A stretch of 64,000 nt of DNA from Somniosus microcephalus (GCA_052327205.1 CM126206.1:165044001-165108000), one strand, 5' to 3'; shown: positions 58,872 through 64,000, numbered from the stretch's first letter. Notes: generated from the sequence alone by a model not told the origin. A program made the numbers and translations.

Positions 58872-59662
58872 GTCTCTAGCCCTTAAAGCTCAACTGCTTT
58901 CTGAAAAAAACACTTTAAAAGTCATTCCAAACCAGGCAGTCTGCAGCTCTTAAAGCTGAACTGCCTTCTGCACATAAAAAATGGTAAAAATGCTCCAGCA
59001 CTGACACAAATGACTCAACAGGCCAGGGATAGGGTACCCAGGGTCTCGCATGCAGCACTCCAGCTTTGTGCAGGGGGTCAACACTGGAAGAGAGGTCCTC
59101 TACCCACAGGGGCCCAAGAAGCCCTCCAGAAAGAACGATGTGGGACCAGATAGCCGAGGCTGTCAATGCCAGCAGTGTCGCCCTCAGGACCTGGCTCCAA
59201 TGCCCAAAGAAGTTTCACGACCTCAGACCAGTGGTCAAGGTCAGTGAATGCATCTTCAAAAGCCATCTCCTACCAACTGCACCACTAACCCCACACGCTG
59301 CTCAATGCAAGACCTCACCCCTGCTTTACTCACCTACCACCAATCTCTACCAAACATGAGGCACATCTCATATTCCTAACCTGCCCAGCCAGTGGTTAAC
59401 CAAGAAGGGAGACAGGAGAGTGAAGAAGAAGAACAAACACAGTTACTCGATTTGACATTCCCAGCCACCAGTTCCTCAAGGTCGCCCTGCAAGGTCATTT
59501 GCAGTGTCCCCAACTGAAAGTCAGCAGCCTTCCACCAGCTCTGCTGTAGCCACTGGGGCAGCACTCTGTGACATCACTAGAATAGGATAGGCACATGCAA
59601 GACAGTCACTAAGGGAATGCACAAGAATGATTAGTTGATTTCTTGACATAATATTGGATGCA

Positions 59663-62600
59663 TCTATCTATATCTATATATATAAAGGAATCGATCTGTC
59701 TGTCTATCTGTCTGTCCTTCTGTCTGTCCTTCTGTCTGTCTGTCCTCACGTGTGCGTCTGTCCGGCTATGCGCTCGAAAGTTATAGAGCGTACCTATGCG
59801 CGCGTTACCTCCGAAGAAAGCTTACCCCAAAGCCTGGCACTCGATTTAAACCGCCCGGCCCAAAACAGCCCTGGCAAAGCCGGGCTCCCCCCAGCTATAT
59901 CTCTATATATCTATAAATAAAGCGGTACTTCTGTCCGTCTGTCTGTCTGTCTGTCTGTCTGTCTGGCTATACACTCTCAAGTTATAGAGCGTACCTACAC
60001 GTGCGTCATATCAAAAGAAAGCTTACGATTCCAGAACGGTCATAAGCGTATTTACGTTTCGGTGAGACAAAAATTGCGCCCGTGGTATCCAAAAAACGTT
60101 CAAAATTCCGCTCATTACCCGCTCATTAGCATCGAGTGACGTTGAGGTCGACCAATCGTATGGTCGCGCGACCCGACGGTCGACCAATCGCTGCGTCGCG
60201 GGTGCGGGCGGGCCCTCCTACAGTCGATTGACAGGACGATTGACCAATCCTACGCTTCAGTGACATGACGGTTGACCAATCGGTGCGTGTGTGGGCGGGC
60301 CTTATCCTTCTGAACCGAGGTGCGTGGCCGCCATCTTGATTCCAAACTGTTCATTTCTTTTTCCCACTTTCTGCGTGTTTCTTTTCAAATCTACATTTCC
60401 AGCAAAAAAAAATTGCTTTTATTAAATTGTTTTAAAAAAAAGTTAATTCATTTGTAAATATTTTCTCTAACCTGATTCTTTTTCTTACCTTTCTCCGTTT
60501 TTGTAAGGCCTCAAAGCCTGGGCCTCTCCTGCCCAGCCACGCCCGAGCTAGGTAATTGTCCCACGGCTTGTGGTAAGCTCCTCTTCCCCCCCCACAGTCT
60601 CCCCCGTCACGTTACCCGGGGCAACGGCGTCGGCCGCGAGGGACACGGGACAGGCACAGGGTGCGCGCGCAGCAGGCGACACACACAAGTCCGAGGCACA
60701 GAGCGCGGGAAGCCAGCAGGTGAGATGCGGCGTCTCTCTCTCTTCCCCGCTCAGCGGTCTTGAAGCCGGTTCGGGCGGGGGGGCGGGGCTCTTGGGAGAG
60801 CGGGGGGCGGGGCTCGGGAGTGCGGGGCGGGGGGGCTCGGGAGTGCGGGGCGGGGCGGCCGGGGCTCGGGAGGGCGGGGGCTCGGAAGTGGGGGAAGGGT
60901 TACCCCGGCAACCGGGCCTGGCCATCTGTCACAGCCTCAAGCCGGCTCACGCCTGTTCCCGAGGCTTGGCTCCATTTCCGCCCGCGGGCCACTCGCCCTC
61001 TCTCTCTCCTTCCCTCTGTGTCTCTCTCTCCTCCTCCCTCCCCACCTTCTCTCCCCCCCTTCTCTCCCCCCTCCCCCCCCACGGTATCCAAAAAACGTTC
61101 AAAATTCCGCTCATTATCCGCTCATTATTCAAAATTCCGCTCATTAGCATCGAGTGACGTGAAGGTCGACCAATCGTACAGGCGAGCGACCCGACAGTCG
61201 ACCAATCGCTGCGTCGCGGGGGGCGGGTTCGTCGCACGTGCGTGCGGGCCGTCCTAGAGTCGAGCGACAGGACGATTGGCCAATCCTACACTTCAGTTAT
61301 CTGACGGTTGACCAATCGGTGCGTGTGTGGGCGGGCCTAATCATTCTGAACCGAGGCGAGTGGCCGCCATCTTGATTCCAAACTCTTCGTTTCTTTTTCA
61401 CGCTTTCTGCGTGTTTCTTTTCAAATCTAAATTTCCAGCAAAAAAAAAGTTGCTTTTAAAACACACATTGTTTTTAAAAAAAGTTAATTAATTTGTACAT
61501 CTTTTCTCTAACCTCTATAATTTTCCTACCTTTCACCGTTTTTGCAGGCCTGGAAGCCTGGGCCTCTGTTGCCCAGCCACGCCTGAGCTAGGCACCGCCC
61601 CTCCCGCTGGGCCCGCCCCGCGGTTGCCGCCATCTTGGTAAAGGCTGGCGGCGCGGGACTGGGCCGAGTGTAGCCATCGTCGCCATTTTGGTAAAGGCTG
61701 GCGGGGCGGGAGGGAGCCTAGCGGGAGGTGAGTTGCGGTCACCACGGGGCTCAGGCTCAGCTGATCGGGCGCTCATCAGGGATTGGCCCGCAACACATCG
61801 ACCGGAGCAGCAGCGGCTCTCTCTCTCCTTCGCCCCCGTGGCTCGGGCGGGGGGCCGTGCTCGGGAGGGCGGGGCTCGGGAGGCCGGTGCTCGGGAGAGC
61901 AGGAAGGGGGGGGAAGGGTAACCCCGGCAACGGGGCTCGGGAGGGCGTGGGGCGGGGTTTGGGAGGCGGGGCTCGGGCTGACCGGGGCGCTGCGCTCGGC
62001 TGGGCCATGTCAGTGCGTGGGGCAGCACGGAGCTCCGCGGAGCCATCGCCGGCAGAGGGGAGAGGGTCTGCTGGCTCCCCCACTCCCTTTCTCCCCCCCC
62101 CCTTTCTCCCTTCCCCCCCTCCCCCCACCCTTCCCCCCACACCCTTCCCACCCCCCCTTTCCCCCCCACACACCCCCTCCCTCCCATCGCGCCCCTCCCC
62201 TCCAACCCCCCCTCCCTCGCTCCAACCCCTCCCCCTCCACTCCCCCTTCCCCACCCCCCTCCACTCCCCCTTCCCCACCCCCCCACCCCCACCCAAACCC
62301 CTTCCCCACACCCCCTCCCCCCTTCCCCTCCCTCCCCCCTTCCCCTCCCTCCCCCTCCCCTCCCCCTCCCCCCAGTCGCTCTCTCTCTTCCCCCCAGTCA
62401 CTCTCTCTCTTCCCCCCAGTCGCTCTCTCTCTTCCCCCCAGTCGCTCTCTCTCTTCCCCCCAGTCGCGCTCTCTCTTCCCCCCAGTCGCTCCCTCTCTTC
62501 CCCAGTCGCTCTCTCTCTTCCCCCCGTCGCTCTCTCTCTTCCCCCCAGTCGCTCTCTCTCTTCCCCCCAGTCGCTCTCTCTCTTCCCCCCAGTCGCTCTC

Positions 62601-64000
62601 TCTCTTCCCCCAGTCGCTCTCTCTCTTCCCCCAGTCGCTCTCTCTCTTCCCCCAGTCGCTCTCTCTCTTCCCCCCAGTCGCTCTCTCTCTTCCCCCCAGT
62701 CGCTGTCTCTCTTCCCCCGTCGCTCTCTCTCTTCCCCCCAGTCGCGCTCTCTCTTCCCCCCAGTCGCTCTCTCTCTGTCCCCCCAGTCGCTCTCTCTCTT
62801 TCCCCCAGTCGCTCTCTCTCTTCCCCCCAGTCGCTCTCTCTCTTCCCCCCAGTCGCTCTCTCTCTTCCCCCCAGTCGCTCTCTCTCTTCCCCCCCAGTCG
62901 CTCTCTCTTCCCCCCCAGTTGCTCTCTCTCTTCCCCCCAGTCGCTCTCTCTCTTCCCCCAGTCGCTCTCTCTCTTCCCCCCAGTCGCTCTCTCTCTTCCC
63001 CCCAGTCGCTCTCTCTCTTCCCCCAGTCGCTCTCTCTCTTCCCCCCAGTTGCTCTCTCTCTCTCTCTTCCAACAACAACATGCCCTCAAAAAAGCCTCGG
63101 CACCACTGGGCACTCCAGCTAGTATCTATCTATCTATATATATAAAAGGATACTTCTGTCTGTCATTCCATCTGTCTGTCTGTCTTCAATAAACTCGAAG
63201 GTTATAGAGCGTACCTACACGTGTGTTACATCGAAAGAAAGCTTACGATTCCAGAACTGTCATAAGCGTATTTACTTATCGGTCGGACAAAAATTGTTTG
63301 CGCGTTATGCAAAAATACCTTCAAAATTGAACTCATTATCTGCTAGTAGCATTGATTGACTGACGTCAAGGTCGACCAATCCTGTGCCGGCACGATTGAC
63401 CAATCCTACAGTTCAGTCGCCTGATGGTTGGCCAATCGCTGCGTCTGTGGGCGGCACTAATGCTTCTCAACTCAGGCATCGGGCAGCCATTGCTTCACTA
63501 CTTCCAGCTCAAAATCTGCTAATCCAGCTTCGAGAAAGTTAGTATCTCTTTTAAAAATTACATAACATTTATCAAAAACGTTTTATAAGTACTTTCACTT
63601 CCATCTTTGAAGCTATTGAAAAGTAGAAATGTTGCCCGGCAGCCGATTCACAGAGGGACACAGACAGGCCCGAAAGCCTGGGATTCGATTTAAAATGTTG
63701 CCCGGCAGCAGATTCACACAGGGACAGACAGACAGGCCCCAAAGCCTGGGACTCGATTTAAAGCGCCCGGCCCAAAACAGCCCTGGCAAAGCCGGGCTCC
63801 CCCAGCTAGTATCTATATATATAAGTCGGTACTTCTGTCTGTCTGTCTGTCTGTCATCGCGTGTGCGTCTGTCGGGTATGCGCTCGAAAGTTACAGGGCG
63901 TACCTACGCGCGCGTTACCTCCAAAAAAAGCTTACGCTTCCGAGACGGTTTTAAGCGTATTTACGTTTCGGCCGGGCTAAAATCGCGCCCGCGGTATCCC
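59663..64000 (+). mobile_element. Tandem array of non-autonomous Helitrons: units 59663-59897, 59900-63122, 63125-63809, 63812 to >64000
   Basis: Each unit starts TC(TA)n-rich-AA, then (CTGT)n and a shared GTTA(T/C)AG(A/G)GCGTACCTA...AAAGCTTAC block; completed units end with a GC hairpin (GCCCTGGC-AAA-GCCGGGC or a variant) about 8 nt before CTAG (CTA in unit 1); first unit follows an A, as expected for A|T insertion; no TIRs. Confidence 0.85.
62371..63068 (+). repeat. Minisatellite, ~22-bp unit CAGTCGCTCTCTCTCTTCCCCC(C), about 30 copies, preceded by a C-run tract (62080-62370)
   Basis: Directly visible; units vary mainly in CT-repeat and C-run length. Confidence 0.95.

Follow-up and report, generated by a model that had tools for sequence, protein, structure and literature searches.

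The last part of a 64,000-nucleotide (nt) stretch of DNA from Somniosus microcephalus (GCA_052327205.1 CM126206.1:165044001-165108000; host genome of 6.45 Gb), hereafter the window, is occupied by an array of at least five non-identical, non-autonomous Helitron1 (HLE1) copies, which are joined head-to-tail and extend past the window end. We consider it probable that this array is a polarised stack of independent copies, built through a preference of the Rep-helicase transposase for targets that resemble the 5' head of the element itself. Stacking is genome-wide and involves about one-fifth (about 22%) of the family copies. A preliminary description of the window had proposed a stacked array of non-identical Helitrons with a constant TA-TC junction; the head-to-tail stack proved real, whereas the junction was not constant even within this array.

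Structure of the array

The array consists of units U1 to U5, separated by junctions J1 to J4. The head common to the units is TC(TA)n-AAA, followed by (CTGT)n and a conserved core. The hairpin-CTAG tails of the window units are of two kinds (tail A and tail B). Heads are 72-87% alike with one another, and the tail A sequences of U1 and U3 are 96% identical over 73 nt. The features are as follows:

59561..59662, plus strand: left host flank, a dispersed repeat with a terminal A (homologues at 76-83%)
59663..59672, plus strand: 5' stubs TCTA and TCTATA ahead of the U1 head, as read from the sequence
59663-59897: U1 with its stubs, 235 nt
59673..59897, plus strand: U1 proper, a short copy with head and core fused to tail A, final G absent
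59898..59899, plus strand: J1 spacer TA, after CAGCTA (reads CAGCTA-TA-TC, end G missing)
59900..63122, plus strand: U2, 3,223 nt, non-autonomous, tail B
62367..63061, plus strand: 22-nt minisatellite, 32 copies, within U2
63123..63124, plus strand: J2 spacer TA (CAGCTAG-TA-TC), followed by TCTA-TCTA stubs and the U3 head
63125..63809, plus strand: U3, 685 nt, tail A
63810..63811, plus strand: J3 spacer TA (CAGCTAG-TA-TC)
63812..64000, plus strand: in-window part of U4, which runs on to 65174 (window-extended count) and ends in tail B

Unit coordinates and lengths, the shared head, the sequences of J1-J3 and the TCTA-TCTATA stubs at the left end were all as first described. U4 measures 1,363 nt in total and is directly adjoined by the TC-less head of U5; J4, which lies beyond the window, reads CTAG|TATATATATAAAAGG and has neither a TA-TC spacer nor a TC on U5. 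U5 enters an N gap at 66791-67288 (window-extended). Homologues of the left host flank continue as a target-like T-N6-ATAAA stretch, and the first TCTA at the left end of the array may be host DNA, since a related run reads TCTAT at this site. The right host flank could not be found in the 20 kb examined, in which the N gap intervenes.

Frequency, polarity and sequence of junctions

Among the first 100 tails in coordinate order, the next sequence was a same-strand head in 22 cases (20 recognised by core match and two, which are paralogous, by eye), a reversed Helitron in three and host DNA in 75. Genome-wide, the head microsatellite follows 114 of 580 tails, counted on the forward strand only, and 266 of the 1,217 copies of the U3 head subtype are preceded by AGCTAG, compared with a chance of ~5e-5 (0.005%) for tail-head adjacency. 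The enrichment of head-to-tail neighbours foreseen in the preliminary description is therefore well borne out. A tail was also present in front of 37 of the 86 tail-A copies with a located head. When reversed heads in front were sought with looser criteria, 17 loci were obtained, of which 10-12 were judged real on inspection by eye, and the observed polarity (head-to-tail to head-to-head) was ~25:1. It should be noted that 30 loci retrieved by a tail query with three bases past CTAG were biased; they were excluded from the rate counts and kept in the pooled flank analyses. From the head-microsatellite junction listing, 35 of 40 listed loci were examined.

The 128 distinct junctions (135 loci) comprised 68 perfect CTAG|TC joins, 30 with other TA starts, seven with TT, six with TA-TC, 16 with an altered tail and one of another kind. 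Because only 6 of 128 junctions genome-wide are TA-TC, the constant TA spacer claimed previously is a local feature of the window array. When examined by eye, TA-TC was present at seven of the first 100 AGCTAG-preceded heads listed and at 4 of 59 distinct tail-microsatellite junctions, and a rough estimate at the observed rates predicts a few genomic cases of two successive clean TA-TC junctions. Where a TCTATA stub lies ahead of a head, the next insertion at TCTA|TA would produce another CTAG-TA-TC. TATC could not be regarded as part of the true terminus either, a possibility considered from the beginning, as the 100 tails share only the T that follows them. Tails without the final G were found at 10 of 107 junctions versus 1 of 48 (p=0.17).

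Relationship between neighbouring copies

Heads of neighbouring copies were as dissimilar as random pairs (identity 0.80 versus 0.81; n=88 junctions with both heads measurable, p=0.21), with identity of at least 98% at one of these 88 junctions and at none of 41 perfect CTAG|TC joins. Thus, array units arrived separately and are not rolling-circle concatemers, which agrees with the earlier view that different family members are stacked. Tandem Helitrons are usually read as concatemers in passages of PMC5876387 and PMC12001565, and units formed as rolling-circle concatemers or read-through composites might have diverged later. A few identical tandem junctions point in this direction (the exact tandem duplicate L237-238 and paired rows among the listed AGCTAG-preceded heads), and 6 of 88 neighbours were at least 95% alike. 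However, only three pairs among the 128 junctions reached 95% on both sides (of these, one is a paralogous locus and the other two differ in their spacers), and the U1 internal join and J1 occurred only in the window itself (40 scored of 2,455 candidates). Concatemers are contradicted as the main route and remain as a small minority; as an explanation of the array we find them very improbable.

Related candidates were also rejected. Near-identical units, as expected of a rolling-circle array, were absent from the window array. A fixed composite element present elsewhere, which had been named as a possible objection, was not found in the search with the U1 join and J1 described above. A double-insertion dimer with target-site duplication (TSD) disagrees with the lack of any TSD and with the 68 spacer-free junctions.

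Target site preference

T followed all of the first 100 tails, and A preceded 123 of 129 host-flanked heads, whereas G preceded only one. Empty homologues of the host repeats rejoin exactly, without duplication (for example, L118, L209 and L221), and the same host-repeat positions were repeatedly used by different copies. A third, different Helitron tail was observed at the same host hot spot (L286, G000:C1:5.828 Mb); the target preference is therefore common to other subfamilies.

The 75 solitary right flanks were A/T-rich from +2 to +12 (1.3 G/C versus 4.7), and ATAWW was present at +5 to +14 in 62 of them, compared with 3.9% of background A|T sites. These flanks resemble the head, but C at +2 was not favoured (7 of 75). 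The objection that most copies might be solitary with random flanks was thus half right: on the 3' side 75 of 100 are solitary, but their flanks are head-like. One head-like site in a host repeat has 18,814 copies, and four of the first 100 were filled, all by Helitron tails. The ratio of filling between heads and this site was predicted to be 5-12.5 by a position-weight matrix of the solitary flanks, and was observed to be 22/4 = 5.5. Because a head-like host site is filled at approximately the motif-predicted ratio, plain target preference likely suffices for stacking, with no need of special homing. The self-targeting suggested in the preliminary description is accordingly supported as a by-product of target preference, not as a dedicated homing mechanism.

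Two further observations concern these flanks. In one sequence variant of the head-like host site, 3 of 15 copies were filled as judged by eye, versus 1 of ~85 others; the preference may extend past +14, or filling may follow subfamily age. The right flanks of L085, L086, L116 and L024 contain a (TA)n-rich stretch, resembling a bare head prefix, between tail and host repeat; such stretches are absent in the empty homologues.

Insertion at resident 5' ends

TC was missing on 30 of 112 junction heads versus 5 of 59 host-flanked heads (p=0.005); one of these 30 is a reversed tail fragment with no cut head, and eight anchors without a detectable head were dropped from the stub and TC counts. TC stubs were present on the left of 9 of 9 host-flanked copies ahead of a TC-less head (mean 4.3), compared with 15 of 35 solitary copies (mean 0.7; p=0.002). 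In about six of ten head-to-head cases, the reversed copy lay inside a cut head (by eye). Based on the TC-less junction heads, the left-hand stubs and the reversed copies inside cut heads, insertion occurs at the 5' end of residents, as had been proposed.

The extra stubs had been regarded as leftovers of insertion. Their link to TC-less heads supports this idea, but not all stubs are remains of a visible insertion, because 15 of 35 solitary copies carry them. Stub units in the family were TCTA (134), TCT (20), TCTATA (18) and TC (14). We found no footprints of aborted insertion or excision among the short inserts listed at bare host hot spots (100 of 103 and 23 of 23), which were ordinary host duplications. 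In a test of donor inheritance, a stub was shared in 0 of 31 sister pairs, the sisters being only 97-98.7% alike. For the stubs of solitary copies there remain slippage, recombinational collapse of stacked copies, or a carried leftmost terminus as proposed for Fusarium. A search for empty or shorter alleles in other individuals (four contig runs) returned paralogous repeats only and no orthologous allele.

Proposed mechanism

In the mechanism that we propose, the Rep-helicase would prefer an A|T followed by ~11 A/T-rich bases with ATAWW, for which the TC(TA)nAAA head of the element would be the best match. The enzyme may cut targets that resemble the strand held at its own origin, so that the head would be the best target in several registers. 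A newcomer at A|TC ahead of a resident would create a perfect CTAG|TC join, one at A|T between the stubs of a resident would create CTAG-TA-TC (J2 and J3), and one inside the resident (TA)n would leave a TC-less head on the right and a stub on the left (J4). Each newcomer would supply a fresh head, renewing the target without TSD, and the polarity of the array would follow from the one-sidedness of the motif. At perfect joins, entry at A|TC in front of the resident appears to be favoured, since insertion at G|T was seen in just one of 129 host-flanked cases.

A broader version of this idea can be offered tentatively, as we would give it somewhat less than an even chance: the transposase might have the same specificity for the target and for its own origin, each 5' end might act as a self-renewing, TSD-free landing pad, and head-to-tail Helitron arrays, repeated 5' stubs and mixed termini might quite generally arise mainly through such insertion rather than through rolling-circle concatemers, in which case perfect CTAG|TC junctions would be no evidence of circles.

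Several results weigh against stacking by target preference at the 5' end. For heads and the host site alike, absolute occupancy is 30- to 70-fold higher than the matrix predicts, and the matrix gives a polarity of ~2:1 at head regions versus the ~25:1 observed; it is a rough model and was rejected as an absolute predictor when used alone. The filling of the host site (4 of 100) is a loose estimate. Stubs did not differ significantly between copies ahead of TC-less heads (9 of 9) and those ahead of TC-bearing heads (9 of 14; p=0.12), and the 68 perfect junctions carry no sign of direction. The TCT and TC stubs (34 units) and the exactly TC-less heads are incompatible with a clean A|T cut, and (TA)n slippage blurs the junctions. 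In addition, no age order could be detected along arrays by a crude nearest-neighbour proxy (5' versus 3' neighbours, p=0.24; 7 versus 7 among 15 pairs from which the selected anchor was excluded), and the suggestion that arrays record insertion history gained no support from this comparison.

The undetected age order is also compatible with growth on the 3' side, in which the CTAG|T of a resident and its head-like right flank would mimic a circle junction, with the nick falling at G|T or, slightly further on, at an A|T. Both CTAG|TC and CTAG-TA-TC would be produced in this way, with host bases as the spacer. Precise in vitro cleavage of a CTAG|TC junction by the transposase (in passages of PMC5876387), the head-like right flanks and the trimmed tails at 10 of 107 junctions agree with such growth, but it cannot yield TC-less downstream heads or their link to stubs, and the single G before 129 host-flanked heads argues against nicking at G|T. 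Moreover, array-ending copies did not exceed single copies in the target strength of their right flanks (23 of 27 versus 31 of 39), and five arrays that lie within known host repeats (L048, L060, L072, L095 and L135) have a complete right host flank. We therefore rate growth on the 3' side as quite unlikely. Active homing, in which the transposase on the origin or subterminal core of a resident would capture an incoming strand and thereby exceed the 12-base motif in rate and orientation strictness, seems unlikely too, though a little less so, and it may supplement target preference rather than displace it. The excess of polarity over the matrix and the frequent tail in front of tail-A copies would be expected from homing, and the rolling-circle model requires an A|TC origin nick at every initiation (as given in passages of PMC5876387). 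However, relative to heads, a host-repeat site without any Helitron sequence was filled about as often as predicted, and no local hopping of Helraiser around donor sites is reported in passages of PMC4778049. Insertion by target preference at resident heads remains our favoured explanation.

Family identity and autonomous partners

The family is a non-autonomous Helitron1, as indicated by Rep-helicase partners with shared termini, T after tails, A before heads and duplication-free rejoining of empty sites. The 25-nt tail A has 1,119 exact copies genome-wide and the 15-nt core 12,465 copies; since 29 of 52 cores were exact, the number of heads in the genome can be estimated at ~22,000. The 5' TC terminus is present in U1-U4 and in 54 of 59 host-flanked heads and absent from U5. 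At the 3' end (CTRR), U2, U3 and U4 have CTAG, and U1 lacks the G. A hairpin 10-15 nt from the 3' end was found in U1, U3 and U4, with stems 11-12 nt from the end (z -0.7 to -2.0). Folding energies were -7.2 kcal/mol for U1 (z -0.7), -2.9 for U2 (z -0.1), -7.2 for U3 (z -1.8) and -6.7 for U4; the U2 hairpin is decayed, and none of the U1-U3 hairpins strongly exceeds shuffled sequences.

The expected Rep-helicase partner with the same termini could be identified. The genome has at least 150 scored Helitron_like_N matches, and the HUH motif was present in all 10 long partner frames examined. Tail B lay behind the frame at 7 of these 10 loci by pattern, and also at L237-238, and a head lay ahead of it in most. 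Over 343 nt, the U4 head matches one autonomous Rep-helicase copy at 95.6% identity. One partner frame has a Walker A-like motif (read by eye), and a Pfam PF14214 match was obtained in a scan that covered part of one frame. No Rep-helicase remnant was detected within the array, U2 included. At L184, L225-226, L227-228, L229-230, L231-232 and L233-234, frames that contain HUH and helicase motifs run for 1,700-2,200 codons without a stop. This family may have been recently active.

An assignment to Helentron/Helitron2 (DINE-1-like) elements, for which passages of PMC13085455 give T|T or T|C insertion and asymmetric terminal inverted repeats, was rejected: the target here is A|T and the ends are TC...CTAG, and no terminal inverted arms were found in the window units beyond microsatellite matches.

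Other features of the units and related loci

U2 contains an internal repeat (60084-60552 versus 61083-61592, 82%), because of which it is probably two fused copies. Autonomous copies and U4 likewise have the 22-nt minisatellite of U2 ahead of tail B. Tail B copies (for example, window 63060-63122) have AACAACATGCC.. adjoining the final 28 nt of the autonomous tail, a structure that looks like a deletion from approximately the transposase start codon to the terminus. The 3' part of U3 contains a 68-nt tandem duplication (window 63627-63762), and in other copies (L048, L072, L099, L112 and L118) the tail hairpin repeatedly shows a duplication of 35 nt. CCAAT-box-like GACCAATC motifs are repeated in the 5' part of the element (window 60131-60330, 61149-61370 and 63355-63440) and may represent the transposase promoter.

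Directly past the N gap, a head-to-head pair of two family copies (window-extended 67290-67630; L031:4290-4630) has a common (TCTA)n stretch, and its plus-strand copy stops after ~230 nt. Eight loci on one small contig (L003-L010; G000:C43, 31.9-42.0 Mb) are 97-99.5% alike across the Helitron and for 1.5 kb on either side of it; they represent a larger repeated segment and not separate insertions.

Implications and comparison with known systems

The case for rolling-circle concatemers has drawn on CTAG|TC junctions in genomes and on tandem Helitrons. In this genome such an inference fails, because most perfect junctions join unrelated copies. A one-sided target motif that had been reported without explanation is now tied to the 5' end of the element itself, and target recognition by the Rep-helicase becomes directly testable. 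Read-through across stacked copies explains new combinations of left and right termini. For annotation, stacking means that about one-fifth of sites have distorted copy boundaries and counts, and Helitron vectors could re-insert at their own ends.

Our literature search found no paper in which tandem arrays are linked to a target resembling the 5' end of the element itself, and such a cause of heteromeric arrays is absent from the passages seen of PMC4778049, PMC5876387, PMC12001565, PMC13286980, PMC3789558, PMC12477314, PMC13085455, PMC5148889, 10.1101/158386 and PMC5738225. The novelty is subject to two studies cited in parts of PMC12477314, PMC5148889 and PMC5876387, according to which maize Helitrons insert near other Helitrons (Yang and Bennetzen 2009) and tandem Helitrons occur in plant centromeres (Xiong et al. 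2016). To judge from the same body of passages, the asymmetric target (barley) and self-insertion (Fusarium) are already in print.

Canonical Helitron1 elements (Helraiser/Helibat and Heli1Xen1), as described in passages of PMC4778049 and PMC12001565, have the same 5' TC with TA-rich TATATAAA, 3' hairpin-CTAG, TSD-free A|T insertion and Rep-helicase partner as the family described here, and de novo Helraiser sites are AT-rich chiefly on the 3' side. In those accounts, however, head-to-tail junctions are read as circles or concatemers and arrays are few (four for Heli1Xen1), whereas ~22% of copies here are joined to unrelated neighbours; the hairpin quoted for Heli1Xen1 also differs. The barley Helitron target (passages of PMC5738225) is likewise one-sided, with AAA ~8 bases downstream of A|T, but is explained there by binding one helical turn away, with neither arrays nor the 5' end of the element itself brought into the account. 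Fusarium FoHeli elements (passages of PMC5148889) resemble our family in acquiring multiple 5' termini through self-insertion, one copy being inserted 2 bp ahead of the 5' end of another, but differ in having Helitron2-type termini, few cases and duplicated 5' ends of 31-85 nt, and that account gives no genome-wide rate, polarity or target explanation. Finally, tandem dimers of Drosophila transposable elements (in the part of 10.1101/158386 consulted) also arise from repeated site-preferring insertion and not from rolling-circle concatemers. In Drosophila the site is kept by TSD, whereas here, with no TSD, the element's own head would renew the target.

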